This document shows, piece by piece, positions 1-25,066 of a stretch of 64,000 nucleotides of DNA. How positions within the stretch are numbered: the first letter of the stretch is position 1; each line of letters begins with the position of its first letter. The notes below the pieces were generated by a model that had not been told where the DNA came from, did no database searches, and worked only from the letters and a program-made list of their open reading frames with translations. Source of the stretch: Marinicella sp. (GTDB lineage Bacteria > Pseudomonadota > Gammaproteobacteria > Xanthomonadales > Marinicellaceae); assembly GCA_965230295.1 (NCBI GenBank), contig OZ246001.1, positions 2,368,001-2,432,000 on the forward strand, in the 5' to 3' direction. A program made the translations under genes and the position numbers.

Positions 1-2
1 GA

Positions 3-524
3 AGTGGCAATGGTCGAGATTCTTTGTACTTTGCCAGTAAAGGCTGTTCAGTTACATCCATGGACCTGTCTCATGAAGCCATCAGCCAATCAAACAAAAG
101 AGCGGAAGCAGAAGGGTTGAATGGCACCCGTTTTTTCCAAGGAGACTTAACGTCCAAAAAAGACATCAGCAGGACGGTGGATCACGCACGAAAATCGAAT
201 GAAAATCAACCCATTACTTTTTACTCCAGGTTCGTGATGCATTCGCTTGACGACGAACAAGAACAGGCCTTTTTGAAAGTGATGGGCCATTGTGTAAAAG
301 CAGGTGAACACATTTATTTCGAGTTCAGGTCTGCGGAAGATGCCGCATTAGACAAGCATTTTGGTGGTCATTTCAGGCGATATGTAAATACTGAAACCTT
401 CAAAAAAAGATTGAGCGATGAAGGGTTCAAAATTGAATATGAGATCATTGGGCAAGGCATGGCTAAATATAAAGAGGAAGATCCTTTCGTGGCCAGATTC
501 ATCGCCAAAAAACTGGATCCTTAA
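3..524 (+). CDS. Class I SAM-dependent methyltransferase (5'-truncated by window edge)
   Basis: Frame is open to the window start and reads SGNGRDSLYFA (SAM-binding GxGxG motif), followed by acidic MDLS and YSRFVMHS segments. Confidence 0.85.
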   Translation, partial: SGNGRDSLYFASKGCSVTSMDLSHEAISQSNKRAEAEGLNGTRFFQGDLTSKKDISRTVDHARKSNENQPITFYSRFVMHSLDDEQEQAFLKVMGHCVKAGEHIYFEFRSAEDAALDKHFGGHFRRYVNTETFKKRLSDEGFKIEYEIIGQGMAKYKEEDPFVARFIAKKLDP

Positions 525-548: not shown

Positions 549-1691
549 ATGTTTCGGTTTTTCAAATATTTAAAAAATGTCATTGCATTTAATCAGCTGC
601 CCAGAAAAACAAGAACTGTCGTTTTTTATTCAGAAGGAAAAAACTATTGGGTGCATTTACAGGGGCTGGTTAATGAATTGCTGAACACCCATAAAGTCCC
701 TGTTTGCTATGTCAGTTCAAACGACAACGATCCTGGTTTGGCCATGCAACACCCCAATTTTCACAGTTTCCTGATTGATGAGGGATGGATCCGGAATTGG
801 TGGTTTGAAAATTTAGAAGCTGATATGTTGGTGCTGTCTATGCCGGACATTCACCAGTATCAGGTCAAAAGGTCAAAACACCCTGTGCATTATGTTTATG
901 TACAACATTCATTGGTCAGTAAGCACATGGTTTATCGTGAAGGCGCATTTGACCACTATGATTCAATCTTCTGTGCGGCACCACATCATTTCAAGGAAAT
1001 CAGGGCCATAGAGTCCTTGTACAACTTGAAACCCAAAAATTTGTATGAACACGGCTATGCCAGGTTGGATTCAATCCTAAAAAATGCCCAACAGAATAGA
1101 AATAATGAATCCGCACACAGCGCTAAGCCGCATGTACTCATTGCACCTTCTTGGGGCGAAGTTAATGTGGTGGAAGATTATGGCCAACAGATTATTGAGA
1201 CTTTGTTGAATCACAATTACAAAGTCACGTTAAGACCTCACCCTCAAACCATCAAGTTTTCTAAGAATACAATTGATGCGTTGGTCAGTCAATTTTCAAC
1301 AAACCCGGACTTCTCCTTTGAGGGGAATGTTGATGGCGAGGCCTCATTACACATGTCTGATGTCATGATCAGTGATTGGTCTGGGGCAGCACTGGATTAT
1401 GCTTTTGGACTCGGCAAGCCTGTGTTGTTCCTGGATGTGCCCAGAAAAGTCAATAACCCGGAATACGAAAAATTGGGAATCGAGCCGTATGAAGTGATGA
1501 TCCGTGAGAAAATTGGACGTGTGATCAGCGTGGATCAAGTTGATGAGATCCATCACTCAATTGAAGCTTGTTTGGAAAAACATAAAACAGCACCTTATGA
1601 ACATGATATTTTCAACCTCGGAAAATCTGATGAAGTGGGTGCCCGGTTACTGATAGATATATCTGCCAAATTGGAACATGAAGAAGGTTAA
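549..1691 (+). CDS. CDP-glycerol glycerophosphotransferase (TagF/TagB-like, GT-B fold) family protein
   Basis: Motifs GYARLD, VLIAPSW, LRPHP and SDVMISDWSGAALDYAF..KPVLF are typical of this family. Confidence 0.8.
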   Translation: MFRFFKYLKNVIAFNQLPRKTRTVVFYSEGKNYWVHLQGLVNELLNTHKVPVCYVSSNDNDPGLAMQHPNFHSFLIDEGWIRNWWFENLEADMLVLSMPDIHQYQVKRSKHPVHYVYVQHSLVSKHMVYREGAFDHYDSIFCAAPHHFKEIRAIESLYNLKPKNLYEHGYARLDSILKNAQQNRNNESAHSAKPHVLIAPSWGEVNVVEDYGQQIIETLLNHNYKVTLRPHPQTIKFSKNTIDALVSQFSTNPDFSFEGNVDGEASLHMSDVMISDWSGAALDYAFGLGKPVLFLDVPRKVNNPEYEKLGIEPYEVMIREKIGRVISVDQVDEIHHSIEACLEKHKTAPYEHDIFNLGKSDEVGARLLIDISAKLEHEEG

Positions 1692-1694
1692 TCT

Positions 1695-2822
1695 TTGATG
1701 CAAGTTAAACACCTGAACAGCTTTTTTCTATTCTTGTTATTGCTGTTTCCATTGCAGTCAAATGCCAGTATTTCAAATAAAAAAACCGTCAATAGCCAGC
1801 ATGAATTAAAGGCCCAAATAGACAGACAAATCCGCGAGTCCTATGATTTTTTTGGCTTGGCAATTTATTTAAACCAAATTCATTTCTTTTCATACACTGA
1901 TCAACAGCTGATGCCATTGGCCTCAGACGATTCTGTGGTTGAATTGGGTCGTGATTCGAGCCTGTTGGTTGTCGGTAGGTTTAATGTCTTGATCCTGCAA
2001 GCAGATGGTCAAATCATAAACCTTAAAGAAGGTGAGATTAAGTTTGATACATCGGCCAGTCATCCTTTGCAGTACCGTGTCGTTTCAAAACCTGAAGTGG
2101 GCCTAGTCAATGAAGCGTATGAGTCATTGAGGTATCACCAGCTGTATACACCACTGGCGGCGTTATCCAGAGGCTTGGAATGGGTATTGAGGTCACTGGG
2201 TAATCATATGAATTGGGGGTTTGCCATCATTGTCATGGCCGTTTTGATCAAGATTTTACTGATCCCGATCAATGTGCTGACCGTCAGATCACAAAGAAAA
2301 GTCAGTCAGGTTCAAGCAAAATTAATGCCTGAATTGGCCGAAATCAAAGCAAACTTTGATGGAGAAGAAGCCCATAACAAGATAATGGCGGCCCACAAGC
2401 ATCATGGAGTTTCTCCATTTTTCACTTTGAAACCCTTGATGAGCACATTGATACAACTGCCGGTGTTGATTGCCGTCTTCAATGTTTTGGCTGAAATGCC
2501 TGAGTTACGTGGTGCAACATTTTTGTGGATTGGGGATCTGGCATACCCGGATGTGATTGTGCAATTTTCAAGTGGCATCAGTATGTTTGGTGACAAGATC
2601 AGTCTCTTGCCTGTACTCATGACGATCATCGCATTATTGGCCTCATATGCTTACAAGGATCAGCATTTACCTGAGCAAGCGGCCAAGGCCCAAAGGAAAA
2701 AACTGTTGCTGATGGCGATGGCGTTTTTTGTTTTGTTTTACCCCTTTCCGGCATCCATGGTCATGTATTGGGCCATGGCCAATCTACTCCAGTTTATTCA
2801 GCAGAATTTGATGCGCAGTTAA
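1695..2822 (+). CDS. YidC/Oxa1 family membrane protein insertase, non-canonical paralog
   Basis: NWGFAIIVMAVLIKILLIP, helical hairpin KLMPELAEIK, LIQLPVLIAVF, FLWIGDLAYPD and MVMYW..NL.Q..Q match the YidC core. N-terminal signal/TM and a short periplasmic domain. Confidence 0.85.
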   Translation: MMQVKHLNSFFLFLLLLFPLQSNASISNKKTVNSQHELKAQIDRQIRESYDFFGLAIYLNQIHFFSYTDQQLMPLASDDSVVELGRDSSLLVVGRFNVLILQADGQIINLKEGEIKFDTSASHPLQYRVVSKPEVGLVNEAYESLRYHQLYTPLAALSRGLEWVLRSLGNHMNWGFAIIVMAVLIKILLIPINVLTVRSQRKVSQVQAKLMPELAEIKANFDGEEAHNKIMAAHKHHGVSPFFTLKPLMSTLIQLPVLIAVFNVLAEMPELRGATFLWIGDLAYPDVIVQFSSGISMFGDKISLLPVLMTIIALLASYAYKDQHLPEQAAKAQRKKLLLMAMAFFVLFYPFPASMVMYWAMANLLQFIQQNLMRS

Positions 2823-3116
2823 ACACTGAACACACGCCAGTGATATGGTTTCAGGCCATAGATTTAAGGACTGGTGAATCATTTTTGCGCAATGTATTCT
2901 TGCCGATATACATATGACAAGTGATGAATTAGGAGCTATAATGCAGCGTCATTCATCATAGATTAGAAACCATAAAATCCAAAGCTTTCAGGAAAAACAT
3001 GTGGTCATTGAGCCGTCAAATTCTGGAGGACTGGTTTGATCACATATAAACAAATGCAGGATTTTAATAGACCATGATGACAGCCTGTCTGTTAATCACC
3101 AATTATCTCGAGCTTT

Positions 3117-3899
3117 ATGGAATTTTTCAAAGACATCTTAACTGGCTATAAGCGCAAAAGATTGTGGAAGAAGCTGGCCGTATTGGAATTGAAGAGTAGA
3201 TTCCAAGGTGCTTTTATCGGTACATTCTGGATTGTCTTGACCTTGATGATTAAAGTGGGCATGTTGTCACTTATCTACTCGATGGTACTGGAAAAAGACA
3301 TCAAAGATTATGTGTTGTTTTTGGCTTTGGGGCTGTTGACCTGGAATTTCATTTCTGCGGTGATCGTAACCAGCGGAAATATTTTCAGAAAAGCCGCCAA
3401 TTTTCTACAACAAATGGACTTGCCACATTCCATTTTTGTTTATCAAAACATTTATCGAGAAATTGTGTCGCTACTGATGTATCAGCTTTTTGCCATTCCC
3501 CTGGTCATCATCATCAAAGGTTGGGATTTTGTTGGTTTGATTTGGTTGTGGTCATTCCTGGGTTACTTGATCATCATTTTAAATGCATTTTTTGTCAGTA
3601 TGTGGCTGGGTTGGTTATCTGTTCGATTCAGAGATGTTCAGTCTTTATTAACCAGTTTGGTCATGATCATTTTCTTAGTAACCCCGATCCTGTGGCCGCC
3701 ACCTGAGCAATTTGCCGGTAGTTTGTATTTCCAACTCAATCCATTTTATCATTTGCTTGAATTAATCAGGTCGCCAATACTGCAAGGTGTTGTACCCGTT
3801 ACATCCTGGTATGTCAGTTTAGGGTTGTTGTCTTTCAATGTGTTAATTTGCGTGATGTTTTATCGCAGAGTCAAACACCGTTTGGTCTTGTGGTTGTAA
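3117..3899 (+). CDS. wzm: Polysaccharide ABC exporter permease (Wzm-like)
   Basis: ELKSRFQGAFIGTFW, RFRDV, TPILW and NPFYHLLELIRSP; six hydrophobic segments. Confidence 0.88.
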   Translation: MEFFKDILTGYKRKRLWKKLAVLELKSRFQGAFIGTFWIVLTLMIKVGMLSLIYSMVLEKDIKDYVLFLALGLLTWNFISAVIVTSGNIFRKAANFLQQMDLPHSIFVYQNIYREIVSLLMYQLFAIPLVIIIKGWDFVGLIWLWSFLGYLIIILNAFFVSMWLGWLSVRFRDVQSLLTSLVMIIFLVTPILWPPPEQFAGSLYFQLNPFYHLLELIRSPILQGVVPVTSWYVSLGLLSFNVLICVMFYRRVKHRLVLWL

Positions 3900-3901
3900 T
3901 C

Positions 3902-4612
3902 ATGACGAGCATATCTTTAGAAAACATCACTTTTTCTTATAAATACTTTCCATCCATCAGCGGTGGACTACTGAAAAGCAATTCAGGCCTCAAAAGCCAG
4001 ACTGCTTTGTCAGATGTTAACCTACAAATTAACCATGGTGATCGGGTTGCCCTGTTGGGAACCAATGGTGCTGGTAAATCCACCTTGTTGAAAATAATCG
4101 CTGGCATTTACAAACCCGAAAAGGGTGAAGTAAAAACTGAAGGTCGGGTCTATACATTTCTGGGTAGGAATGTGGGTGTGATGCCCCAGCTTTCAGGGTA
4201 TGACAACCTCACTGTTAGGGGGTTGTTGCTTGATTTGCCTGATGATGTGATCGAAGAGAAAATTAAAAGCATTGTCGAGTTTACAGAGTTGGGTGATGGC
4301 ATTCATCGACCGGTTTCTACCTATTCAATGGGCATGCGGGCACGTTTGACTTTTGGTATGTTGATGTTTATTGATGCAGACATTCTGTTGATTGATGAAG
4401 GATTGGGTGCTGGAGATCAGTTTTTCCTGGAAAAGGCCCGTAGATTTATCAATGAATTGTTGGACAATTCAAAAATATTAATTTTTGCCAACCACTCTAA
4501 CCAATTGTTAAAGCAATTTTGTAACAAAGCATTGCTGGTTAATGAAGGACATATTTTGTCTTATGGTGCATTTGATGAAGTCTTGCATCAGTATAACCAT
4601 TTGAAAAAATAG
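3902..4612 (+). CDS. wzt: Polysaccharide ABC exporter ATPase (Wzt-like, no C-terminal CBM)
   Basis: Walker A GTNGAGKST, signature YSMGMRARL, Walker B ILLIDE. ATG at 3902 follows the wzm stop; 236 aa. Confidence 0.88.
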   Translation: MTSISLENITFSYKYFPSISGGLLKSNSGLKSQTALSDVNLQINHGDRVALLGTNGAGKSTLLKIIAGIYKPEKGEVKTEGRVYTFLGRNVGVMPQLSGYDNLTVRGLLLDLPDDVIEEKIKSIVEFTELGDGIHRPVSTYSMGMRARLTFGMLMFIDADILLIDEGLGAGDQFFLEKARRFINELLDNSKILIFANHSNQLLKQFCNKALLVNEGHILSYGAFDEVLHQYNHLKK

Positions 4613-4748: not shown

Positions 4749-5597
4749 GTGATTAATATAGTATCAGCTGTTAAAGATATGGTTCTTTCGGTCAAGAACT
4801 TCTTGGAAATGAACCCTGGAGTCAGAAGCATTTATGTTGGTGGGTATACCGCGTTGGTTAAACTGAAGTTTGGCCGAAGGTTATATGTTGACTCAAGAGA
4901 CATAGGGGTTGGTTCACATATCATGATCACAGGAGTGTGGGAAAAAAACTACACCGAATTGGTGAAAAAGCTGGTTAAAGAAGGCGACACCTTTGTCGAT
5001 GTGGGTGCAAACTTTGGTTACTACAGTGTGCTGGGCGGCCACCTGGTTGGGAATACAGGTCAAGTATTTGCATTTGAACCTAATCCGAGGCCATTCGAAT
5101 TACTCAGGATGTCAATGAAAGCCAATGGCTTCCTTAAGCCAAACGACTCAAATGTGTTTAAATTTGGTGTCTCTGATGCAGCTGGTGAAGCCTCATTCAA
5201 TTTCAAAGAAGGCGATTTTGGTGGTGGTTCAATGTTCATCCCAGAACAAAGACTGGAGACAGAAGAGTTTGCTACCATTGACATCAAAATTGACTCTTTG
5301 GATCAAATGCTGGATCATGTTGACTCAATCGATTTCATAAAGATCGATGCTGAAGGCAGTGAAGTGAATGTCATCAGAGGGATGAAGGAATTGATTCGAA
5401 GGTCTCCTAAGATAAAAATATTGATGGAGTTTTATCCTAATTTCATCAAGAAACACGTTTCTTTGTCTGAGTTCACTGATGAGCTTGAATCGATGGGTTT
5501 CCATTTCAACAAGGTGATCAATTCAAAATTGATCCCTGTGGCTGCCAGTGAACTACCCAATTTAGAAAACTGCTATTTGCTGTTAAGCAAATCCTGA
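4749..5597 (+). CDS. FkbM family methyltransferase
   Basis: FVDVGANFGYYS, VFAFEPNP, IDFIKIDAEGSE. Confidence 0.9.
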   Translation: MINIVSAVKDMVLSVKNFLEMNPGVRSIYVGGYTALVKLKFGRRLYVDSRDIGVGSHIMITGVWEKNYTELVKKLVKEGDTFVDVGANFGYYSVLGGHLVGNTGQVFAFEPNPRPFELLRMSMKANGFLKPNDSNVFKFGVSDAAGEASFNFKEGDFGGGSMFIPEQRLETEEFATIDIKIDSLDQMLDHVDSIDFIKIDAEGSEVNVIRGMKELIRRSPKIKILMEFYPNFIKKHVSLSEFTDELESMGFHFNKVINSKLIPVAASELPNLENCYLLLSKS

Positions 5598-5700
5598 AGA
5601 TCTGTGGCCATTAAACAGCGCTTGACAGCACTGATTCAAGGACTGGTTGAAAAACCATTAACTTCATCATGATTTTACCACCAAGTATCAGCGAGTAATT

Positions 5701-7677
5701 ATGTCCATTCAATACCGCAAAGACATAGATGGACTGAGGGCTTTGGCCGTTATTCCTGTGGTCTTGTTTCATTCTGGATTTCCTTTCTTTGAAGGTGGTT
5801 ATGTTGGCGTAGATATCTTTTTTGTGATCTCTGGATTCTTGATCACCAGTATTTTGATGAGACAATTGAATCAAGGTGCTTTCTCTATTGCAAACTTCTA
5901 TGAAAGGCGCATCAAAAGAATCTTTCCAGCTTTGTTCACAGTTTTGTTGGTGTCATCCATTGTTGCCATTTGGCTGATGTTGCCTGGTGAGTTTAAGCAG
6001 TTCAAACAAAGTATGGTTTCGGCTTTGTTCTTTTTCTCTAATTATTTCTTCATGTTTGATGTGGGGTATTTTGCCGACCCTGCAGAAACCAAGCCTTTGT
6101 TACACATGTGGTCTTTGGCTGTTGAAGAACAGTTTTATGTGTTGTTTCCTGTCTACTTGTTTTTGGCCTTTAAATATTTCAGGAAATACCTGGGTATAGT
6201 TACCTTACTGTTGTTTTTATTGTCATTTATTTACAGTGTCGTCTTGGTTGAATACCGTCCAGGCGATGCTTTTTATTCAACACCGGTCAGGGCATGGGAG
6301 TTGATGATAGGTTCTCTATTGGCCATCTATCCGAACAGGTCATTATTGGCCCATAAAAATGTAGCCAATGCACTGTCTTTGAGCGGTTTGTTATTGATCA
6401 TATATGCTGTGGTTTTTTTCGATAAGACCACCCCATTTCCAGGCTATATGGCCATGATTCCAGTGATGGGCTCTGCGTTGATTTTGTTTGCAGCTCATCA
6501 TCAGGGTAATTATGTGGGTCGTTTATTATCCACGCCGGTCTTCAGGTTTTTTGGGTTGATTTCCTACTCGTTGTATCTTTGGCACTGGCCTGTGTTGGCT
6601 TTTGCGCGATTGTATTCATTGGGGTCTCATCCTGACGATTTGATGCCCATGTTATTGGTATTGATGATTGTCCTTTCATTCTTGAGTTGGCAATTTGTAG
6701 AAAAACCATTCAGAAGTGGTCAGTTGTTAAATCCCAACAGTAAGGTGTTGCTCAATCGTTACAGCGGGTCTTTGTTGGTCTTGTTTGTGACTTTGACTGC
6801 TTTGGCTTTTTCTGATTACCGACGTGCTGTCAAGCGAGAACACCGTTCGCATAGGGAGGCCAGAGTACTCAGTAAGCCCATGGAATTGAATCAATGTGAT
6901 CATTACAAAGGTTCATCACGTAATCTGAACCTGTGTTTTATTGGAGACGTTAATAACCCTGAAATCAGTTTTGCGATGCTGGGAGATTCTCATGCATTTG
7001 CATTGATGCCTGGGGTGTATGATTCTGCCCAGTCTCATGGGAAGAAAGGCATTTTTATTGGAAGCGGCGGGTGTATCGGCTTATTTGGAGTGACCCGCGA
7101 AAAACAAGGCTTTGAGCATTGTAAATCGAGGATGGATGCATTTGCAGAGTACATCGCTACACAACCTGGTATTAAACAAATCCTCATAGCTTCCAGGTGG
7201 GGGACGTATACCACAGGTAAAAGATATAAAAACACCATCGGTGATTCGTTTTACATCAGCGATGAACAAACCAAGCAAATTTCATTCGAAGAAAATAAAT
7301 TGGTCTTTGAACGGGGCTTTGAGCATACCATTGAATTTTTAAAAGGACTTAATAAAGAAATCACTGTGATCACACAGGTGCCTGAGAGTGAATACAGCAG
7401 CCTCGATATCATCAGGGCCAAGCGATTAAATAGATCGGTTGACTTCCGGCCCAAAGTCACAGAATATATGGCACGTCAAAAAATAGCCACGGATGTGTTT
7501 ATGAAGTATGAAGCCAGTGGCGACATTGACTTGATACCTGTGCATGAAAGCATGTGTGGATTAACACACTGTGTGGTGTTCGATGGTGGCAAATCCATTT
7601 ATATAGACAACAACCACATTTCCAGAACTTATGCCAAGAAATTATCACCCATCTATGATTACTTGTTTGAAGAATGA
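5701..7677 (+). CDS. Acyltransferase-3 + SGNH domain O-acyltransferase (OafA-like)
   Basis: YRKDIDGLRALAV, GVDIFFVISGFLIT, HMWSLAVEEQFY; periplasmic GDSHA and DNNH catalytic motifs. Confidence 0.92.
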   Translation: MSIQYRKDIDGLRALAVIPVVLFHSGFPFFEGGYVGVDIFFVISGFLITSILMRQLNQGAFSIANFYERRIKRIFPALFTVLLVSSIVAIWLMLPGEFKQFKQSMVSALFFFSNYFFMFDVGYFADPAETKPLLHMWSLAVEEQFYVLFPVYLFLAFKYFRKYLGIVTLLLFLLSFIYSVVLVEYRPGDAFYSTPVRAWELMIGSLLAIYPNRSLLAHKNVANALSLSGLLLIIYAVVFFDKTTPFPGYMAMIPVMGSALILFAAHHQGNYVGRLLSTPVFRFFGLISYSLYLWHWPVLAFARLYSLGSHPDDLMPMLLVLMIVLSFLSWQFVEKPFRSGQLLNPNSKVLLNRYSGSLLVLFVTLTALAFSDYRRAVKREHRSHREARVLSKPMELNQCDHYKGSSRNLNLCFIGDVNNPEISFAMLGDSHAFALMPGVYDSAQSHGKKGIFIGSGGCIGLFGVTREKQGFEHCKSRMDAFAEYIATQPGIKQILIASRWGTYTTGKRYKNTIGDSFYISDEQTKQISFEENKLVFERGFEHTIEFLKGLNKEITVITQVPESEYSSLDIIRAKRLNRSVDFRPKVTEYMARQKIATDVFMKYEASGDIDLIPVHESMCGLTHCVVFDGGKSIYIDNNHISRTYAKKLSPIYDYLFEE

Positions 7678-7767
7678 TGATCATTTGATTGATTGATGTG
7701 GTTTTGAAACAACCCAAATTAGCAGCATTCTGATAGAATAACGAGCTTGCTTTGCAAATTAAAAAAT

Positions 7768-8742
7768 ATGTTAAATCTAAAAAAACAATTTTCAATTCCC
7801 AAAAAACAATTGAGTGAATGGTATTCACGCAGTGTTGCAGAAAGGAATGAATTGAATAACCAGTTCATTGATAGCAAGTTAATTGACTGGGAAGAGATGA
7901 AGGACAATACCCCGGTCAGAAAAATCAAACCATTTCATGTCAAAACCAACGTGGTGTTTTTTCATATTCCCAAGACTGCAGGGACCACATTAGATTTTGT
8001 GATCAGCAAAAACTTACCCATTTGGGGTATTTTTAAACAACATGGAGCTGATTTCGATCGAAATGTTGCGGCTTTTTATAAGTCTGGCGATGGGCCCAAA
8101 ACAGTCATGGGCCACAATGAACTGAACGATTATTTTTATCAACTTTTAACCAGAGAGCGATTGATACACATCACCACCATCAGAGAGCCAGTGGCTCGAG
8201 TGGTTTCATATTATGATTTTCTACGGGCACAGCCTGCCCACCCAAGCCATCATTTGGCGGTCAATATGTCATTGGCGGAGTTTGTCCAGTCACCTAAGTC
8301 AGACGAAGTCAATAATGCACAGTCATACAGGTTACTTGGTCTGTTAAAACACAATCAATATAAATCAGAAAAAAGGTCCGAACAAGAATTGATAGAAGCC
8401 AGTATCAAACAACTTTCTGATCGGTTTACCTTGTTTGGCACCACTCGCCAATTCGATGCCTTTCTATTGATGATGTCAAAATTGATGAACTGGCAAGATG
8501 TCTATTATAAAAAACAAAATGTAACCAATAAAAAGTTCAAAACTGATTTGAATGATGTGCCAGAAGAAGTCATACAAATCATTAAAGAATACAACAAAGT
8601 AGATATAGGGCTTTATGATCAGGCAGAGCAATTGTTCGATAAGCGGGCGGCTGAGTTGAACATCACAGATGAAGTGGTTGAAGCTTATCGTGCCAGGAAT
8701 AAAAAATACCAAGCCCTTATCGTCCAAAATCAAAAGTTTTGA
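7768..8742 (+). CDS. Sulfotransferase family 2 protein
   Basis: 5'-PSB FFHIPKTAGTT and 3'-PB IREPVARVVSYY. Confidence 0.85.
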   Translation: MLNLKKQFSIPKKQLSEWYSRSVAERNELNNQFIDSKLIDWEEMKDNTPVRKIKPFHVKTNVVFFHIPKTAGTTLDFVISKNLPIWGIFKQHGADFDRNVAAFYKSGDGPKTVMGHNELNDYFYQLLTRERLIHITTIREPVARVVSYYDFLRAQPAHPSHHLAVNMSLAEFVQSPKSDEVNNAQSYRLLGLLKHNQYKSEKRSEQELIEASIKQLSDRFTLFGTTRQFDAFLLMMSKLMNWQDVYYKKQNVTNKKFKTDLNDVPEEVIQIIKEYNKVDIGLYDQAEQLFDKRAAELNITDEVVEAYRARNKKYQALIVQNQKF

Positions 8743-8826
8743 TGGCGATATGAAAGCCTATATAATTTAATCAATTGAAGCTGGAGTTTAATCAATTCTG
8801 GGTTTATAAAATGGTAAGCATATAAA

Positions 8827-10122
8827 GTGATGAATAAGAAGATGAATATTCTGGTTGATGGATTCAATTTAGGTTTGAAAAAGGGTTCAGGCATCAAAAC
8901 TTATGGCATGACTTTGTTGGATGCTTATGAGCTGCTGGATCATGAAGTTGGAATTTTGTTGGATAACCAATTCCTGACCGGTAAAGATCAATTGTTAGAC
9001 GAGGTCAGTTTGTTCGATCAGGATGAAATCAGACCCAAGGCCATGTTTGATTTTCGCCTGCTCAGCCACATCAAAACCCTCAGTTACTATTTCAGAAAAA
9101 GAAAAGGCAATTATGTAGTGCCTAAAATCACTGAGCCAGATCCGGAAAATTATTTGTCTCATGTGGGCGGTAAGAAATACCACTATATTGAAAATATTGG
9201 AGATGTTTATAACACGGCCAACCGGTTGTTTGCAGTCACCAAAAAAATCACTCAATTAAAGCTCAAGAAACAACCCGATATCTTTCATTTAACCACACCA
9301 TGGCCCTTAACAGTCAAAGGAGCGAAAACTGTGGTCACCATTCATGATTTAATCCCTTTGAAAATACCGTTCACCACTTTAGATTTGAAAGTCCATTTTT
9401 ATGAACTATTTAAATGGGCAGCTACCACAGCTGATCTGATATTGGCTGTATCCGAACATACCAAACAGGACATCATGGAAATTTATGATGTACCTGAAGA
9501 AAAGATCAAAGTGACTTATCAATCTTACAAAGGTGGCAACATTGAGATTAAGAAAGAAGACGCCGCCGTCTATCTGAAATCTAAGCAGTTAGAGGCTGAG
9601 AAGTACATTTTATTCGTTGGTAACATCGAGCCTAAGAAAAACATCAAGCAATTGATCAGGGCGTTTGCATACATCAAAAAAGGTTATAAATTGGCCATAG
9701 TTGGTCATAAAGCTTGGATGTCTGACTCACAATTGGTTGGGCTGAAAAGCTATCTAAAGAAAAAAGAATATGTGATGTTGGACTATGTCACTGAAGAAGA
9801 ATTGGCCATGTTGTATGGTAATGCTTTTTGTATGGTGTTCCCATCATTGTACGAAGGTTTTGGCTTGCCAGTCCTGGAAGCCATGCAAAACAATTGCCCA
9901 GTCATTTGTTCTGATCGATCTTCGTTGCCTGAAGTGGCTGGAGATGCGGCTTTGTATGTTGACCCTTATAAGTTCACAGACATCAGAGATCAGTTAGATA
10001 AACTGATCGCCGATCCTCAATTACGTCAGGAAATGATCGAAAAGGGCAAAGCACGGGTTGAATTTTTCAGTCCAGAAAATTATGCCAGACGATTGCACGA
10101 GGCCTATGAAGGCCTCATCTAA
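8827..10122 (+). CDS. GT4 family glycosyltransferase
   Basis: TIHDLIP, VGNIEPKKN, FPSLYEGFGLPVLEAM (EX7E motif). Confidence 0.92.
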   Translation: MMNKKMNILVDGFNLGLKKGSGIKTYGMTLLDAYELLDHEVGILLDNQFLTGKDQLLDEVSLFDQDEIRPKAMFDFRLLSHIKTLSYYFRKRKGNYVVPKITEPDPENYLSHVGGKKYHYIENIGDVYNTANRLFAVTKKITQLKLKKQPDIFHLTTPWPLTVKGAKTVVTIHDLIPLKIPFTTLDLKVHFYELFKWAATTADLILAVSEHTKQDIMEIYDVPEEKIKVTYQSYKGGNIEIKKEDAAVYLKSKQLEAEKYILFVGNIEPKKNIKQLIRAFAYIKKGYKLAIVGHKAWMSDSQLVGLKSYLKKKEYVMLDYVTEEELAMLYGNAFCMVFPSLYEGFGLPVLEAMQNNCPVICSDRSSLPEVAGDAALYVDPYKFTDIRDQLDKLIADPQLRQEMIEKGKARVEFFSPENYARRLHEAYEGLI

Positions 10123-11476
10123 TCAAAGGTTTAAATGGTTACCAGATTGGTTACACACAAAATCCAAGAAAAAAGCCAATCCTGCCAGTTATTTCGTACA
10201 CATTCCGAAGACAGCAGGTACCAGTTTCATTGTTTTACTAGATCGTTTTTATGCCGCTGAGAAAATCTATCCACACCAGTTGTGGCGTGAAACTCAAGAA
10301 ATCGATGTGGATGCCAATGATGCCTATGACTTATATAGGGGGCATTTTGGTGGTGGTGGCGTTTCAGTACTGACCCGCAGGGACCTTGAGTATTTCACCC
10401 TGTTGCGTGATCCGAATTCAATGGCCCAGTCAACCTATCAATTTGTGAAACGAGAAAAAAATACCAAAGTACATGAGCTGGTCGTACAACAGCAAATGAG
10501 TTTTTCCGATTTTTTACAACACCACATCACTTCACCATTGGTCAAAAATCGTTTGATCAGGAACATTTCATTTGATTTTGTTGATGACCCTGCAGCACAA
10601 GAAGTGTTTTTGTCAGCAGAAACCATTCAGTATTTACAGTCCATTATCGAACAACAGAAACCAGCCATTGATGATGATCAGCGCTTGCTGCGTGCCAAAG
10701 AATTTTTGGTGTCTTGTCGCTGGTTTGGGTTGTTGGAACGATTTGATGAGTCCATGCAATTGTTGTGCTACACCATGCATTGGCCTCCTGTTGGCAGCAG
10801 TCAAAAATTGAACACCCACAAACATGCGCTTACAGTCTCTGAAGCTGAGACTGATATACTGGAAAGACTCAATCAACAAGACACCGCATTTTATTCTTTT
10901 GCCAGTACTTTGTTTGAACAAAGGTTGGCCGATATGAAATCATCGTTGGATCAATTAAGAACCTCTGAGTGTCAAAGTACTGATGACTTATTGGACCAGC
11001 GATACCAACAGCATCAAGCTCAAGTGATGGCTGATCAATTGCCTGCTGAATTGTCTTATGGTTTTGATCAGGCCTTATTAGGCAGCCAATGGCATCGACG
11101 TGAACTGATGCACCCTGAAAATGAATATTTTCGATGGACGGGTCCAGGCAGTGTGTCAAGTATAGACTTTTGGGTACAGCCCAAAGAATATACCATTACC
11201 ATGCGCCTGATCAACGCCACAGATGTGGCTGTTTTGGATGGTTTGATATTGACCCTGAACGGGCAACCTGCCCAATGGAAAACCAATGATACCGGTTTGG
11301 TGAGAATCTTGTCTTTAAGTTGTGAAAAAGAAATGATCCATAGCAATGGTTTGCTGCGCCTGGGAATTCAGTGCAATGCAATGACCAGTCACCAGCAAGC
11401 ATTTGGTTCCGATGATGAAAGGCTTGTCGGTGTGGCGATACATTGGATAAAATTTAAACATGTCAGCAGCCAATAA
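10106..11476 (+). CDS. Sulfotransferase family 2 protein with C-terminal beta-sandwich domain
   Basis: FVHIPKTAGTS and LLRDP; C-terminal region WH..E..FRWTG...DERLVGVAI. Confidence 0.82.
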   Translation: MKASSNQRFKWLPDWLHTKSKKKANPASYFVHIPKTAGTSFIVLLDRFYAAEKIYPHQLWRETQEIDVDANDAYDLYRGHFGGGGVSVLTRRDLEYFTLLRDPNSMAQSTYQFVKREKNTKVHELVVQQQMSFSDFLQHHITSPLVKNRLIRNISFDFVDDPAAQEVFLSAETIQYLQSIIEQQKPAIDDDQRLLRAKEFLVSCRWFGLLERFDESMQLLCYTMHWPPVGSSQKLNTHKHALTVSEAETDILERLNQQDTAFYSFASTLFEQRLADMKSSLDQLRTSECQSTDDLLDQRYQQHQAQVMADQLPAELSYGFDQALLGSQWHRRELMHPENEYFRWTGPGSVSSIDFWVQPKEYTITMRLINATDVAVLDGLILTLNGQPAQWKTNDTGLVRILSLSCEKEMIHSNGLLRLGIQCNAMTSHQQAFGSDDERLVGVAIHWIKFKHVSSQ

Positions 11477-12719
11477 ACCCATATTTATCACCGGCCGGTT
11501 TCGTTCAGGGACTTCGTTTTTGTGGCAGTTGTTTGATCAACTGGAGGATTACTGTGCTTGGTATGAACCCTTGCACCCACAATTACTGACCGCCATTCAT
11601 TATGTGAAACCCAAAGAAGATCATGTCGGAGTTAAGGATTATTGGTCTGCGTATCGTCAACACCCGGAATTTGCCAAAAACTATTCGTCAGATTTTGCCA
11701 CCCAAAAGTTGTACCTGGAAAGCAAACATGACTACCACGAGTTGGAATCCTATATCAAACATTTGATTTTGCTGTCTGGATCAAAAACGCCTGTGTTGCA
11801 ATTCAATCGAGTTGATTTGCGTTTGGGTTGGTTGCGAGCTAAATTTCCTCAGGCCAGGATTATTCACATTGAACGCAACCCCTTGCAGCTGTATTATTCA
11901 CAGCGAAAACACATTGATGAAGACAGTCGACACCAAGAAGATTATTGGGATGCCTATGAATTGATGCCATGGTGTCATGGACTTTACCAAGAGTTTCCAT
12001 TTCTGTTGGACGGCGCACCGGATCAACATGCATTTTATCGATTCTATGCCTTGTATCAATTGTCAAAATGGAATGCGGCCAAATACGCCAATCAATCCAT
12101 CAATTTAGATGTGGATGTCTTTCAAAGTGATGCTTTTATAGCCAAGTTGAACCAGGTTGTGCCTTTATCTTTACAACAACAATCTCAGATCAAAGCCATG
12201 ACCCATGTACCAGAACAAAGGATGTTTGCGGCTGAATATGTTGAAGCAATGGCAAACATCATGACTACAGTTGATCTTAAGCTGGCCGAAGCCGGGTTGA
12301 CTGAAAATTTCCCGCACAGGTCGTTGTTGGCGATACAGTTCCAACACCCTGATTTTTGGTCTCAATTCAAATCATCTCAACAAGATTTATTGGCATTAGA
12401 AAAAGCCACAGACAAGCTGGCCAATGAAGTTAACAGGATTCATCAAGAGAACCAATATTACCTCAGGGAGATTGATACTTTGTCTGGCAACAGCCATGAG
12501 CTAGATGGACTGCCTGAGGGCATTCTTGATGTAGATAAAATCACACTGCCCACAAAAAAAACGGCCGAAAGTTTGTTGATATACTTCGACCAGTTGACCA
12601 ATGCCATGACACAAATTCTGGCCATCAATGCTTATTTGGATCCAGAGTTTTATGCTTTGAAAGATGCGGCCGATGGCAAGCAAACGCCAGTTGAACCCGA
12701 TGGCGAGAAAGACTCATGA
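11460..12719 (+). CDS. Sulfotransferase domain protein with helical C-terminal tail
   Basis: PIFITGRFRSGTS P-loop, YEPLHP, ARIIHIERNP. Confidence 0.8.
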   Translation: MSAANKPIFITGRFRSGTSFLWQLFDQLEDYCAWYEPLHPQLLTAIHYVKPKEDHVGVKDYWSAYRQHPEFAKNYSSDFATQKLYLESKHDYHELESYIKHLILLSGSKTPVLQFNRVDLRLGWLRAKFPQARIIHIERNPLQLYYSQRKHIDEDSRHQEDYWDAYELMPWCHGLYQEFPFLLDGAPDQHAFYRFYALYQLSKWNAAKYANQSINLDVDVFQSDAFIAKLNQVVPLSLQQQSQIKAMTHVPEQRMFAAEYVEAMANIMTTVDLKLAEAGLTENFPHRSLLAIQFQHPDFWSQFKSSQQDLLALEKATDKLANEVNRIHQENQYYLREIDTLSGNSHELDGLPEGILDVDKITLPTKKTAESLLIYFDQLTNAMTQILAINAYLDPEFYALKDAADGKQTPVEPDGEKDS

Positions 12720-13351
12720 ACAAAACCAAAAGAACAGAAATATTTACCCGCTGGCGCAACATCAACCCCAAACCCACCACGGAGTTGGAATTTTCATCTC
12801 CATTCGAGTTGTTGGTGGCGGTGGCACTTTCAGCCCAATCGACTGATGTGGGTGTCAACAAAGCGACCAGCAGACTGTTCCCTGTGGCGAATACCCCTGC
12901 AGCCATTTTGGCCTTGGGTGAAGAAGGCTTGAAGAACTACATCAAAACCATTGGTTTGTATAACTCAAAAGCCAAGCACATCATCCAAACCTGCCAAATA
13001 TTAATTGAGCGTTTTGATTCGGTGGTACCTGAAAACCGTGAGGATCTAGAGTCCTTGCCTGGCGTGGGACGAAAAACCGCCAATGTGATTTTGAACACAG
13101 CCTTTGGTCAGCCTACCATGGCGGTGGACACCCACATTTATCGGGTTTCTAACCGCACCAAAATAGCACCGGGTAAGAACGTTCTAGAAGTTGAAAAAAG
13201 GCTGGTGCGTTTGATACCCAAAGAATTTATGGTCGATGCCCACCATTGGTTGATCCTACACGGCCGTTATGTCTGTAAAGCACGTAAGCCGATGTGTGGT
13301 GAATGCGTGATCGTGGATTTGTGTGAATTCAATAAGAAGGTGTTGGATTGA
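12716..13351 (+). CDS. nth: Endonuclease III
   Basis: LLVAVALSAQSTD, HhH LPGVGRKTAN, VDTH and the C-X6-C-X2-C-X5-C Fe-S motif. Confidence 0.97.
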   Translation: MNKTKRTEIFTRWRNINPKPTTELEFSSPFELLVAVALSAQSTDVGVNKATSRLFPVANTPAAILALGEEGLKNYIKTIGLYNSKAKHIIQTCQILIERFDSVVPENREDLESLPGVGRKTANVILNTAFGQPTMAVDTHIYRVSNRTKIAPGKNVLEVEKRLVRLIPKEFMVDAHHWLILHGRYVCKARKPMCGECVIVDLCEFNKKVLD

Positions 13352-13366
13352 ATATCACTTCTGATT

Positions 13367-13483
13367 CGTCATCCTGCGACTTGATCGCAGGATCCAGGTT
13401 GGTTGATCCATAATCAATTCATAATACTTAAATAGAATTCATCACTTACTGCCTGGATGCTCTGGTCAAGCCACAGCATGACG
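13367..13483. repeat. REP/RPE-like inverted pair of palindromic units between convergent nth and aroE
   Basis: Arm 13367-13398 (cgtcatcctgcgacttgatcgcaggatccagg) matches the reverse complement of 13452-13483 at 25/32 positions. Each arm folds into its own 9-bp hairpin with a CTTGA loop. Confidence 0.75.
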
Positions 13484-22349: not shown

Positions 22350-24890
22350 TTAACCAGGAAAAATGAGTTCTTTAGCAGGTTGCCTTAAGTTGTATTGTGA
22401 TGACATGACGGCTCCATAGGCGCCAGTGTTGGCAATCAGAATGGTGTCACCTACTTCGGTTTTCGGCATTTTTCGATCAACACCCAGTACGTCACCGGAT
22501 TCACACATGGGACCGACAATACTCGCTGTATATTGGGTCGGTGCCTCCAGACGGCTTAAATTGACAATGTTGTGCCAGGCACCGTACAGTGCTGGTCTGA
22601 TCAAAGAGTTCATGCCGGTTTCGATGCCGATATAACCTTGGTTTTCTTTCCATTTAGTTTGAGTCACTTGAGCCATTAATATGCCACAATGAGCAACCAA
22701 AAATCTTCCTGGTTCCATCCATAAATCCACTTGGTTGTGGGTTTTTTTGAAGTTTAACAAGGCTGTGTTTAAGGCGGTCATGTCCAGTCCCATGTCGCCT
22801 GGATTTTCCCTGATGCCCAAGCCACCACCGAGGTTGATGATTTTCACATTTGGGAAATAAGACATGCATTGCCCTAAGTACTCGGCGATGCGAGGCCAGT
22901 TGTTGTGATCAAGTATGCCACTACCTGCATGTGAATGAAGCCCCACCACATGTATGTTTTGTTGTTGACACCATTTTGAAACTGCTTGTACTTCAGCCGG
23001 CGGGATTCCAAATTTTGAATGTGTCCCTGCGGTTCTTACATAACGGTGGTGACCACTGCCGTGACCTGGGTCCAGGCGCAAAATCACTGATTTTTGGGTA
23101 AACATTTCTGGATAATCGTACAGCAAAGTTGGGTTGTCAATGGTGACATGCAAACCTTTGTTGATGGCCATTTGGTATTCTTCAACCGGTGCAAAATTAG
23201 GAGTGAACAAGATGTGGTCAGGCACTATGTCATGACAACATGATGAAACCCGTTCTATTTCTTCAGGTGAAACAGTTTCCAGGCAAATGCCATGGCTGTA
23301 AATGTACGACAATATTTCCGGGTGAGAATTCGCTTTGCTGGCATAATAAAAACGATCAATCGCTGTGATTTGATTGAGTTGGTCGATTTGATGTTTAATG
23401 GTGGGTAGATGGTAAACATAACAAGGTGAATGATCGGCAGACAATGACAACAATGCCTGTTGGTGTTGTTGCCACCAGGCTTGGGTCTTTTCAGGTAATT
23501 TTGATTTGTCTTGGATCAATTCAGCCCAGGTGGGGCCGAAATCATCGAGTTCTTTGTCTTCAATAATCAGCACTTCATGCAAGGCGCGGGCCAATTTGTC
23601 AGCTTGATCTTCATCGACGACAAAGGTTTGGTTGAGGTCATTTGATGATTGTGTGGTGATGTATATGCGTTGGTCTGCAAAGGTAGATAACACCGGTGCA
23701 ATTTTGTCTGCCAAAGCACGTATTCGATAACCAACCAAAGTCACGGCAGAGCAGTTTTGAAAAATCTCTACCTCACACATGGGTGCCAGTTCTGTTTTTA
23801 ATTCAGCCAACACACTGTCAGTCAGTATGTTGTCTATGTTGTCCAGAGAGATGGTGATGTTGGTTTGTGCTGTTGAAACCAAATCAATGGACAAACCCAG
23901 TTTCTTGTAGATGCCAAATACATCACCCATGAAGCCAGCCTGGTGCCACATGTTGATCGATTCCATGGAAACCAGTGTCACTTGATGGCGGTTGTTGATG
24001 GCCGAGACACGCGGTTTTTTGGCGCTGTATTCTGTGGCCAATACGGTGCCCTTGGCATCAGGGTGATTGGTGTTCTTGATGACCAATGGGATGTTGTTTT
24101 GTTCGACTGGCAAGATGCAGCGAGGGTGTAGTACTTTACCCCCACTGGCTGCAATTTCTCTGGCTTCCTGATAACCCAGATTCAACAACAAGCGGGCATT
24201 GGGAATGCTGTGCGGATTGGCACTGAAAATGCCGTGGACATCAGTCCATATTTCCAGTCTGGAGGCATTCAAAATAACCGCCATATAGGCTGCAGTGGTG
24301 TCAGAACCGCCTCGGCCCAACAACACCGTTTGCTTGCTTGAATTACTGGCAATGAACCCTGGTATGACATAGAAGTTATCAGTCAGTTTTTGATTGATGC
24401 CGGTATCAGGTATGATGTCACATTTGGCCGATAAAATTTGGCTGTCTGTGCTCCGTTTGTCATCATCTGAACTGACTAACCAGTCTTTGGGGTCAAGGCT
24501 TTGGGCAGGTAATTTTTGGCCAAGGTACTGGATGATGATTTTATGGGTGCACAATTCTCCCATGGCCAACAATTCAGCTTGCTGTAAAGTTGTCAGGGAA
24601 GGTGTGTTGTCCAGTTTCTGCAACAGAAGAAAATCATTTTCCAAGCACTGGGTATCTACATTCAATTGGTCAGCTAATGATGAAATACCTGATATGAAAT
24701 CGGCGTAGATAGACACATTATCATTGATTTTCCGTGTCAGTAAATTGGTTAATCCTGAAGCAGCAGAATGTACCAACAAGACTTTGTGTCCTTGTTTAAT
24801 CCGGGCTGACACAACGTCGACAATGACTTGCCATTTTTCGAGGCTGGAAACTGACGTTCCACCGAATTTCAATACCACCCAAGAATTCAA
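22350..24890 (-). CDS. lysAC: Bifunctional aspartate kinase / diaminopimelate decarboxylase
   Basis: KFGGTS, LGRGGSD, WTDV, ACT domains, then YASKANS, HAGSG, EPGR and GPMCESGD. TTG start at 24890 after AGGTGA is preferred over 24923. Confidence 0.93.
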   Translation of the reverse strand: MNSWVVLKFGGTSVSSLEKWQVIVDVVSARIKQGHKVLLVHSAASGLTNLLTRKINDNVSIYADFISGISSLADQLNVDTQCLENDFLLLQKLDNTPSLTTLQQAELLAMGELCTHKIIIQYLGQKLPAQSLDPKDWLVSSDDDKRSTDSQILSAKCDIIPDTGINQKLTDNFYVIPGFIASNSSKQTVLLGRGGSDTTAAYMAVILNASRLEIWTDVHGIFSANPHSIPNARLLLNLGYQEAREIAASGGKVLHPRCILPVEQNNIPLVIKNTNHPDAKGTVLATEYSAKKPRVSAINNRHQVTLVSMESINMWHQAGFMGDVFGIYKKLGLSIDLVSTAQTNITISLDNIDNILTDSVLAELKTELAPMCEVEIFQNCSAVTLVGYRIRALADKIAPVLSTFADQRIYITTQSSNDLNQTFVVDEDQADKLARALHEVLIIEDKELDDFGPTWAELIQDKSKLPEKTQAWWQQHQQALLSLSADHSPCYVYHLPTIKHQIDQLNQITAIDRFYYASKANSHPEILSYIYSHGICLETVSPEEIERVSSCCHDIVPDHILFTPNFAPVEEYQMAINKGLHVTIDNPTLLYDYPEMFTQKSVILRLDPGHGSGHHRYVRTAGTHSKFGIPPAEVQAVSKWCQQQNIHVVGLHSHAGSGILDHNNWPRIAEYLGQCMSYFPNVKIINLGGGLGIRENPGDMGLDMTALNTALLNFKKTHNQVDLWMEPGRFLVAHCGILMAQVTQTKWKENQGYIGIETGMNSLIRPALYGAWHNIVNLSRLEAPTQYTASIVGPMCESGDVLGVDRKMPKTEVGDTILIANTGAYGAVMSSQYNLRQPAKELIFPG

Positions 24891-25066
24891 AACTTCACCT
24901 GATTTTGCGGTTAAAAAATGCAAACTTTAGGGAAAAAAAATAAATCATGCAAGTATTATCGTTTAATATGTTCTTAAGTTATACCCGCACTTGATTTGAT
25001 CCGTCTCGGGACAGATAGAAATCAAACAATCCACAGACAACTGAATGAAGCAGGAAGACAGTATTT

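Follow-up and report, generated by a model that had tools for sequence, protein, structure and literature searches.

We analysed a stretch of 64,000 nucleotides from Marinicella sp. (assembly GCA_965230295.1, contig OZ246001.1, positions 2,368,001 to 2,432,000 of the forward strand), called the window throughout, near the start of which two adjacent genes encode a TagF-like phosphotransferase and a second YidC protein, named YidCp here. A preliminary description of this DNA had read the pair as a glycerophosphotransferase-family gene followed after 3 bp by a complete YidC core, and profile searches agree: the matches to PF04464, PF02096 and TIGR03592 (Table 1) all exceed their cut-offs, those of the latter two being 35 and 84.3. 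None of the full-length YidC equivalog models reaches its cut-off on YidCp. The stop codon of the TagF-like gene ends at 1691 and YidCp starts either with TTG at 1695 or with ATG at 1698 (the database copy, P0001, has 374 amino acids, aa), so that the gap between the genes measures 3-6 bp; the stretch GAAGAAGG just ahead of the start is Shine-Dalgarno-like and lies within the end of the TagF-like gene. A 24-bp spacer separates the TagF-like open reading frame (ORF) from a methyltransferase gene upstream, whose full length (219 aa, L005:9865-10524) begins 136 bp ahead of the window and which gives weak TehB/MduS-type matches in NCBIfam. The operon begins immediately 5' of the methyltransferase gene with a gene for a small protein that we call c10, and thus has four genes in the order c10, methyltransferase, TagF-like gene, YidCp gene.

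The genome, a single 4.0-Mb contig that is 97.9% complete, contains two PF02096 genes. The canonical YidC has 576 aa, matches YidC_periplas with 203.9 bits and 60KD_IMP with 209.7 bits, and is encoded in the order rpmH-rnpA-yidC-mnmE, beside dnaA. A canonical yidC was thus searched for and found, so that YidCp is not the only YidC of the genome; because the housekeeping gene sits elsewhere, the gene in the window is a true paralog of it, and the preliminary description was right to call it a second YidC. In a BLASTP comparison the two proteins are 26% identical (E 1e-24).

YidCp consists of an N-terminal signal-like helix, a remnant of the periplasmic P1 domain, a YidC core with five transmembrane segments (TMs) and a very short C-terminal tail (C-tail). 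The full P1 domain marks the Gram-negative housekeeping type of YidC and not the superfamily. In YidCp the full P1 domain, PF14849, finds no match; the periplasmic part comprises about 145 aa (residues ~27-170) against the 275-residue YidC_periplas match in the canonical copy of the same genome, in keeping with the estimate of about half the usual size, and its residues ~50-165 correspond in the BLASTP comparison to the final portion of the canonical domain. The BLASTP alignment also places FTLKP of YidCp opposite GGCLP of the canonical protein, which supports the earlier statement that TLKP replaces the GCxP motif. After the aligned QQ the C-tail has 5 residues in YidCp and 16 in the canonical copy.

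The AlphaFold2 (AF2) model of YidCp (pLDDT 85.1) has helices at residues 174-188, 190-220/223-236 (a hairpin), 245-267, 304-319, 327-347 and 353-372, and in this model the protein has a predicted five-TM core with a cytoplasmic C1 hairpin that would form the groove. The best Foldseek match is E. coli YidC (6al2; E 1e-11, 355-372 columns), and YidC of B. halodurans matches at E 9e-9.

Table 1. Positions of the module genes, of their downstream neighbours and of a distant operon in the same genome (window coordinates unless a locus or contig is named)
Feature	Position	Strand	Evidence or content
c10, 71 aa	L005:9621-9833 = G000:C1:2367621-2367833 (168-380 bp upstream of window start)		tblastn and translation
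SAM-dependent (S-adenosylmethionine-dependent) methyltransferase, TehB-like, 3' part	1..524 (ORF 3-524)	+	Pfam Methyltransf_25 and TehB
TagF-like GT-B phosphotransferase, 380 aa	549..1691	+	PF04464 Glyphos_transf, 47.4 bits (cut-off 22.1)
YidC paralog (YidCp), 375 aa	1695..2822	+	PF02096 104 bits, TIGR03592 125.9 bits
Spacer between module and wzm, 294 bp	2823..3116	+	one promoter-like site, 2914-2942
wzm	3117-3899	+	NCBIfam galactan_ABC_perm 148 bits, below equivalog cut-off
wzt	3848-4612	+	NCBIfam galactan_ABC_ATP 227 bits, below equivalog cut-off
Operon with homologue of the sulfatase-family partner	L055 (G000:C1:1833000-1850000), 5521-13466	-	GT2 (glycosyltransferase family 2), 365-aa methyltransferase, 871-aa protein, 1015-aa Sulfatase

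The YidCp family and its linkage to the TagF-like gene

A near-length search with YidCp gave 294 proteins at E ≤ 1e-3. The 120 listed relatives have 322-457 aa, are 39-68% identical to YidCp (its own copy aside) with 85-100% of the query aligned, and carry PF02096 only; the few named sources among them include Oceanospirillales, Halioglobus, Oceanicoccus, Burkholderiaceae and SAR324. In an alignment (A1) of YidCp with 20 of the 120, chosen for long contigs or names, the densest invariant block is the C1 hairpin (G223, E224, A226, H227, M231, A233, H234 and others), with the highly conserved motif YDGEEAHNxIMAAHK, and conservation extends over the whole groove-forming TM core. All 21 aligned sequences share K186, which places a positive charge in the first core TM; its column is presumably that of E. 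coli R366. The preliminary description had noted Lys at the conserved Arg position; as a mark of the paralog it fails, since the canonical YidC of the same genome also has Lys there.

Searched alone against 1.84 billion representatives, the N-domain (residues 27-170) matches 41 clusters at E ≤ 1e-3, nearly always at the N-terminus of proteins of 150-440 aa; two matches in multiple stretches look spurious. The domain is specific to the YidCp family. A quick IQ-TREE phylogeny was computed from 57 YidC cores, with members below 300 aa and L051 (a duplicate of L058) dropped and fused proteins cut to 260 residues. It places the window's type in a group of 40 rows (SH-aLRT 91), apart from six canonical rows (SH-aLRT 84) and five fused rows (SH-aLRT 100); the deeper branches are unresolved. 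At L056-L059, L050 and L051 a TagF-like gene or c10 stands alongside a longer YidC paralog of 500-570 aa, and these long forms fall outside the window's short family in the tree.

Scanning one genome per species yielded 49 YidC-centred loci from Gamma- and Alphaproteobacteria, Burkholderiaceae, SAR324, an Acidobacteriaceae metagenome-assembled genome (MAG) and Flavobacteriales MAGs. With the window proteins as tblastn queries, a TagF-like gene lies at most 7 kb from the YidCp gene in 40 of them. In 24 loci it immediately precedes the YidCp gene on the same strand, in 12 it is upstream on that strand across a gap of 0.7-3.7 kb (the gap mostly holding one sulfatase-family gene), in three it lies about 6.1 kb downstream, and in one it is adjacent on the opposite strand. 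No TagF-like gene was found in eight loci, three of which are cut at a contig end, and at one locus YidCp was unmatched by its own query. Where at least 3 kb are present on both sides, the TagF-like gene occurs in 26 of 30 loci. Seen from the other gene, 39 of 80 TagF-centred loci (the best 80 of 443 metagenome relatives) have a YidC-like gene; the share is 20 of 28 where the downstream flank reaches 3.6 kb or more and 14 of 19 where it reaches 5 kb or more. The conserved module with the TagF-like gene that the preliminary description had suspected is thus borne out from both sides, and the neighbourhoods of YidCp homologues are not random.

Both genes are rare. In an even sample at class level, 12 of 401 genomes had the TagF-like enzyme at E ≤ 1e-20, seven with at least 40% identity (the window's genome included) and five with 28-32%, and 7 of 400 had YidCp at E ≤ 1e-40. 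Both genes occur together in five genomes apart from the window's own, and in four of the five they are adjacent; one genome has the paralog only, and one has the TagF-like gene only, the latter being 71% complete with no canonical YidC found in it either. Among the co-occurring and paralog-only genomes, all six that are at least 98% complete hold one canonical and one paralogous PF02096 gene; in four complete genomes apart from the window's own, the canonical PF02096 match exceeds 200 bits and the paralog reaches 98-138 bits. A phylum-level sample contains the TagF-like gene in 2 of 401 genomes (again counting the window's own). The pairing of YidCp with the TagF-like enzyme goes far beyond chance.

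Components of the larger module

All ORFs of the 49 loci were clustered, and Pfam and NCBIfam were run on one representative per cluster. The module so outlined comprises c10, one of three cassettes, the TagF-like gene, often an LtaS/EptA-like enzyme of the sulfatase family, and YidCp. Of the two-gene unit first described, the core pair stands; its extent was drawn too narrowly, in that the small c10 gene and the LtaS-like partner had been overlooked.

The c10 protein has a signal-peptide-like start ending in AxA, the loop Y-[IL]-D-P-G-[ST]-G-[SG], one TM and a basic tail. The loop is kept between distant members; in the window's genome YIDPGSGS follows AxA, and the protein is procoat-like. 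Neither Pfam nor NCBIfam has a family for c10, and an Atlas search gives only unnamed 'hypothetical protein' clusters. By tblastn it is present at 34 of the 49 YidC-centred and 47 of the 80 TagF-centred loci.

The first cassette is the 219-aa methyltransferase alone, found at 16 of the 49 YidC-centred loci, the window's own included; it lies directly upstream of the TagF-like gene at 16 of the 49 and at 18 of the 80 TagF-centred loci. Cassette A, of CDP-amidate type (CDP, cytidine diphosphate), occurs at another 16 of 49. It encodes a PPDK_N/PEP-utilizer protein (PEP, phosphoenolpyruvate) of ~1000 aa, which matches NF004508 with 948 bits, above the cut-off, a Peptidase_C26 amidotransferase, whose best NCBIfam match is the gamma-glutamyl-CDP-amidate hydrolase NF045546 (132 bits, below the cut-off of 250), and an NTP (nucleoside triphosphate) transferase. 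In this variant a soluble 450-aa protein, c6, usually follows the YidC paralog. The third cassette, at 4 of 49 loci, is of phosphonate type and consists of a PEP mutase with a cytidylyltransferase-like N-terminus (419 bits), a phosphonopyruvate decarboxylase (470 bits) and an iron-type alcohol dehydrogenase (Fe-ADH). PMC8942020 states that phosphonoacetaldehyde is reduced by Fe-ADHs and that fusions of Ppm to a cytidylyltransferase are frequent. This gene set corresponds to a hydroxyethylphosphonate-type route.

Up to six cluster members each of the cassette A genes, c6 and the phosphonate alcohol dehydrogenase and decarboxylase served as tblastn queries against the window's genome, and none had a true homologue there. 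A phosphonate route in trans was considered and rejected: the sole PEP-mutase-like gene reaches 120 bits where the cut-off is 319.6 and lies beside citrate synthase, and for these two reasons it is of methylisocitrate-lyase type rather than a true PEP mutase. A 707-aa sulfatase near it has no related context.

A membrane enzyme of the sulfatase family (570-860 aa, with 5-6 N-terminal TMs) is found at 28 of the 49 YidC-centred and 36 of the 80 TagF-centred loci, often between the TagF-like gene and the paralog. Its closest homologue in the window's genome, an 871-aa protein 47% identical to the gene of L009, is encoded 526 kb away in an operon (Table 1) that may act as the in-trans partner of the window's module. 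The 871-aa protein has no Pfam match; its best match in a PDB sequence search is LtaS of S. aureus (E 4e-4). Glycan genes (GT4, GT2, epimerases, wzm/wzt) lie near the module in about half of the loci.

The preliminary description had stated that this type of transferase occurs fused to YidC in some bacteria. A search for longer relatives of YidCp gave six proteins, none of which (0/6) carries PF04464, and the statement found no backing here. One of the six is a canonical long YidC; in the other five, of 691-908 aa and one of them from a Treponema MAG, a YidC core at residues ~33-220 without P1 is followed by a long tail. Three of the five tails show Sulfatase (two) or Phosphodiest (one) matches of 22.7, 18.7 and 17.3 bits, all below cut-off. 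For P0122, the tail can be aligned to the sulfatase-family partner at 22% identity over ~360 residues (E 3e-8); for P0125, the match to a partner gene covers 41 residues only (E 2e-4). These similarities indicate that YidC cores fused to an LtaS-like enzyme exist.

The TagF-like gene is the sole PF04464 gene in the genome. The AF2 model of its product (pLDDT 90.5) has a GT-B fold, and TagF chains account for the eleven best listed Foldseek matches (ranks 1-10 and 12; E 1e-13 to 6e-12), led by TagF of S. epidermidis (3l7m, E 1e-13); next come the capsule multienzyme 8qoy and TarL (8va1). Sequence searches of the PDB, with the single protein and with the family profile, gave no match. Five His residues are invariant in the family (H120, H126, H147, H168, H231), and the motifs APSWG, RPHPQT and SDWSGAALDYA are conserved; we take these motifs to resemble those of TagF. 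Orthologues adjoining a YidC paralog elsewhere are 42-67% identical, and a hydropathy scan predicts no TM segment in the enzyme or in the orthologues shown. The 97.9%-complete genome has no match to the TagD-type glycerol-3-phosphate cytidylyltransferase model (TIGR01518) at E ≤ 0.001. With no TagD-type enzyme found here, and with cassettes of CDP-amidate and phosphonate type elsewhere, the 'polyol-phosphate' label given to the pair in the preliminary description is doubtful. A complex prediction for YidCp and the TagF-like enzyme, both entered as alignments, returned a score of 0.02 and a mark of 0.32, which counts neither way. In a Luminiphilus MAG (L042:5647-6754) the TagF-like sequence is spread over two frames, of 184 and 214 aa, owing to either a frameshift or an assembly error. 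At L119:4105-6090 (also in L120 and L122), a gene that is convergent with the TagF-like gene and adjoins ATP sulfurylase encodes a 661-aa protein with a Glyphos_transf stretch (31 bits) and an ABC-transporter (ATP-binding cassette) ATPase domain.

Some loci have only part of the module. In the genome G535 (locus L064, G535:C1:172000-189000) the order is a divergent sulfatase gene, c10, cassette A, the TagF-like gene, a short c6 and an HGSNAT_cat membrane protein. The last of these, 396 aa long and resembling transmembrane acetyltransferases, may be a YidC substitute or unrelated. Eight TagF-centred loci with long flanks have no YidC-like gene; two of them end after a sulfatase-family gene and a 125-aa ORF, and at three, c10 and a sulfatase gene lie upstream in divergent orientation. 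A Pfam scan of 21 of their 46 flanking ORFs, at six of the eight loci, showed no common YidC substitute. Conversely, at L050 and L051 the paralog lies beside c10 and a 470-aa methyltransferase-containing protein, without a TagF-like gene, and at L049 the same two genes lie 4-6 kb upstream of the paralog.

A possible route for small phosphoryl groups

The reading that we prefer, at a probability of about 0.4, is that the module serves to add small phosphoryl groups to the envelope and that YidCp, within this pathway, carries a membrane-bound intermediate across the membrane. The suggestion that YidCp handles lipid-linked intermediates is still a live reading. From gene content, folds and conserved linkage we infer a donor, a carrier, a direction of transfer and a transport role for YidCp as follows. 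An activation cassette would make a small nucleotide-linked phosphoryl donor, by the CDP-amidate-type or the PEP mutase/cytidylyltransferase cassette in other genomes; here the methyltransferase stands alone, and the group may be a methylated phosphate. That last point is a guess, made because the phosphoryl groups from the other cassettes would be very small and a TehB-like methyltransferase is all that is added here. The cytoplasmic TagF-like enzyme would then transfer the phospho-group to a membrane-held carrier, YidCp would move the charged head group to the periplasmic face through the hydrophilic groove of the YidC fold, and the LtaS/EptA-like enzyme, whose gene lies in cis in many genomes and in trans in this one, would pass the group to a surface glycan or lipid. 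A surface glycan as final acceptor is suggested by the glycan genes near about half of the loci.

Because the TagF-like enzyme would be cytoplasmic and nucleotide-dependent and the LtaS-like enzyme membrane-anchored, with the two acting on opposite sides, a membrane-bound intermediate would have to cross. The ORF clusters of the 49 loci contain no other conserved candidate flippase in the module. Purified E. coli YidC scrambles glycerophospholipids in liposomes (10.1101/2023.09.01.555937; PMC11997395). The fusion of a YidC core to an LtaS-like enzyme fits substrate delivery better than it fits an insertase of that enzyme. For these four reasons, namely the opposite sides, the want of another candidate, lipid scrambling by YidC and the fusion, we favour a YidCp that moves the loaded carrier.

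Several observations weigh against this. YidCp keeps every ordinary YidC feature considered and could simply be an insertase. The conserved coupling of YidC and TagF-like enzyme is not obligatory: G535, which is 100% complete, has c10, cassette A, a TagF-like gene (43% identical) and c6, and its only PF02096 gene is canonical. Five of the 19 TagF-centred loci with at least 5 kb downstream have no YidC-like gene, and L026 and L049-L051 are YidC-centred loci with long flanks and no TagF-like gene. Three of the five genomes in which the pair co-occurs belong to one genus, leaving about three independent cases. The window's own operon has neither a nucleotidyltransferase nor an LtaS-like gene in cis, the nearest homologue of the latter lying 526 kb off. 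Finally, the fused forms share only 25-31% identity with YidCp, and none of their sulfatase matches reaches the Pfam cut-offs.

A dedicated insertase or chaperone for the procoat-like c10, for the polytopic LtaS-like enzyme or for both is a tentative but serious alternative. The complete YidC core, with C1 hairpin and positive groove residue, is present in YidCp, whose best structural match is E. coli YidC. The c10 protein has a conserved cleavage-type site between AxA and Y, a periplasmic loop of ~10 residues and a single TM, and presumably belongs to the class of small proteins that YidC inserts without Sec. Moreover, c10 stays by the paralog at L050 and L051, two of the three long-flank loci counted here that lack a TagF-like gene, and at the third, L049, it lies 5.6 kb upstream; modules without YidCp are expected if the housekeeping YidC can serve. 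However, the most constant neighbour of YidCp, the TagF-like enzyme, lacks any TM and cannot serve as a client; a permanent fusion of YidC core and LtaS-like enzyme would be odd for an insertase and its client; G535 has c10 without YidCp; and the window's own locus has no LtaS-like gene in cis. The C-tail of YidC takes part in ribosome docking, and the short C-tail of YidCp speaks against such docking.

It is unlikely that YidCp is a mere membrane anchor or scaffold, without transport role, that keeps the soluble TagF-like enzyme, perhaps through the C1 hairpin, on the membrane close to a lipid-linked acceptor. The closeness of the two genes, with the Shine-Dalgarno-like stretch inside the end of the first, the density of invariant residues in C1 and the lack of a TM in the TagF-like enzyme are in line with an anchor. 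Yet conservation covers the entire groove-forming core and not C1 only, TagF-like genes occur without YidCp in some genomes, and another gene often separates the two.

The idea of the YidC fold as a dedicated translocation step has a boldest form, a long shot in our view, in which the cargo is the loaded c10 loop, a peptide carrier flipped by an insertase. Improbable, too, is the corresponding full scheme with c10 as carrier, in which the TagF-like enzyme would load a Ser/Thr of the D-P-G-S/T-G-S/G loop with the phospho-group in the cytoplasm, YidCp would translocate the loop in the manner of a procoat loop and the LtaS-like enzyme would unload it in the periplasm. Such a scheme would account for an insertase, a tiny protein with an invariant loop, a phosphotransferase and a periplasmic enzyme of alkaline-phosphatase type travelling together, and the loop is kept in distant members; against it, it is pure conjecture, c10 belongs to no named family, and we know of no TagF-family enzyme that acts on protein Ser.

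That YidCp is an ordinary duplicated yidC placed in a glycan locus by chance, for which it can be said that the wzm/wzt context is not conserved, is highly improbable and already contradicted by the linkage across phyla in 40 of 49 loci and by the co-occurrence of two rare genes (7/401 and 7/400 genomes, 6 shared, own included), and the family moreover has its own conserved N-domain (41 representative clusters).

Compared with known systems, YidCp shares with YidC/Oxa1 insertases the fold and core, the positive residue in the first core TM and the C1 hairpin. Firmicutes have YidC paralog pairs (SpoIIIJ/YqjG, YidC1/YidC2), and YidCp is likewise a paralog beside a housekeeping copy, but in Gram-negative bacteria. 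It differs by a P1 domain cut to ~145 aa, the family-specific N-domain, FTLKP in place of GGCLP, the short C-tail, a strongly conserved C1, and an operon with a phosphotransferase instead of a place alone or with rpmH-rnpA. The TagF-like enzyme shares PF04464 and the GT-B fold with TagF, TarL and capsule polymerases that use CDP-glycerol or CDP-ribitol; in contrast to these, it has only 380 aa without a polymerase-type extension, no match in PDB sequence searches and no TagD-type gene found in its genome, and elsewhere it is linked to CDP-amidate-type or phosphonate cassettes and not to polyol ones.

Variant A of the module has the same enzyme trio (a PRK05849-type kinase, a CDP-amidate-hydrolase-like amidotransferase and a nucleotidyltransferase) as the O-methyl phosphoramidate (MeOPN) route of Campylobacter jejuni. 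Cj1416-1418 are presumably members of these enzyme families. That route starts with a glutamine kinase and proceeds via cytidine diphosphoramidate (PMC6429109, PMC3907429), with Cj1415-Cj1418 for biosynthesis of the capsular MeOPN and Cj1421/Cj1422 as transferases; the available parts of both papers describe no YidC, c10 or LtaS-like component for Campylobacter. A further paper distinguishes the CGPTase gene from that of the MeOPN transferase (PMC8949473). In the window's genome, tblastn found no true homologues of glutamine-kinase, CDP-amidate-hydrolase or cytidylyltransferase type, which occur in the variant-A relatives only.

The sulfatase-family partner shares with the LtaS/EptA/GacH head-group transferases 5-6 N-terminal TMs and a Sulfatase-family domain, though the similarity is weak and in the window's genome the partner lies outside the operon. 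Enzymes of that type take the head group from ordinary phospholipids, and we know of none with a TagF-like or YidC partner. In the GtrB/GtrA/GtrV and ArnC/ArnEF/ArnT systems, cytoplasmic transfer onto a membrane carrier is followed by a flip and by a periplasmic transferase. The logic proposed here is alike, but the flipper would have a YidC fold and not be of GtrA/SMR type, and the cargo would be a small phosphoryl group and not a sugar.

Full-text literature, supplements aside, gave no YidC paralog tied to TagF-like or LtaS-like enzymes or to phosphonate/PEP mutase. Term searches of two phosphonate surveys (PMC6697681, PMC8942020) gave no mention of YidC, TagF or glycerophosphotransferase; one of the two notes clusters with several sulfatases. 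All this points to a widespread, undescribed module, whose parts belong to known families and in which the use of the YidC fold and the c10 protein are new. YidC is known as a housekeeping protein insertase, and to our knowledge no physiological pathway depends on its lipid scrambling, shown only recently and in vitro; an operon-wired paralog is a natural system in which to see whether the YidC fold moves non-protein cargo in vivo. The module would use one delivery machinery for three rare phosphorus chemistries (phosphoramidate-type, phosphonate and probably methyl-phosphate), with a bearing on how marine bacteria build surfaces that carry phosphonates or phosphoramidates, and c10 adds a widespread, unnamed family of ~70-aa membrane proteins. 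Should YidCp turn out to be nothing more than a dedicated insertase, it would still be new as a YidC that is specific to its clients and encoded within a gene cluster of Gram-negative bacteria.

Surroundings of the module

Downstream of YidCp, the site in the spacer matches the promoter consensus at 11 of 12 positions, as a consensus match only; a scan for promoters and terminators gave no more sites in this region than shuffled sequence did. The following wzm and wzt genes encode the ABC exporter of the surrounding glycan locus. The placement between a methyltransferase and wzm/wzt is as the preliminary description gave it for this locus and does not extend to a conserved tie: close wzm/wzt homologues lie near the module in only a few of the 49 loci (e.g. 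L032, L035 and the Marinicella litoralis locus L025, which has the same operon), and the exporter is local context and not a conserved part of the module.

Genes for an FkbM methyltransferase, an AT3-SGNH acyltransferase, sulfotransferase-family proteins and a GT4 enzyme lie 3' of wzm/wzt, and the locus ends at nth. Three sulfotransferase-type genes are found in its 4749-12719 part, at 7747-8742, 10058-11476 and 11460-12719; the last is a Sulfotransfer_3 gene, and the second has no Pfam match but clusters with the first. This gene set suggests a sulfated, methylated and acylated polysaccharide exported by Wzm/Wzt. Farther downstream, at 22350-24923 on the reverse strand, a single 857-aa protein joins an amino-acid (aspartate) kinase domain to an ACT domain and an Orn/DAP/Arg decarboxylase and so resembles a bifunctional enzyme of LysC-LysA type.

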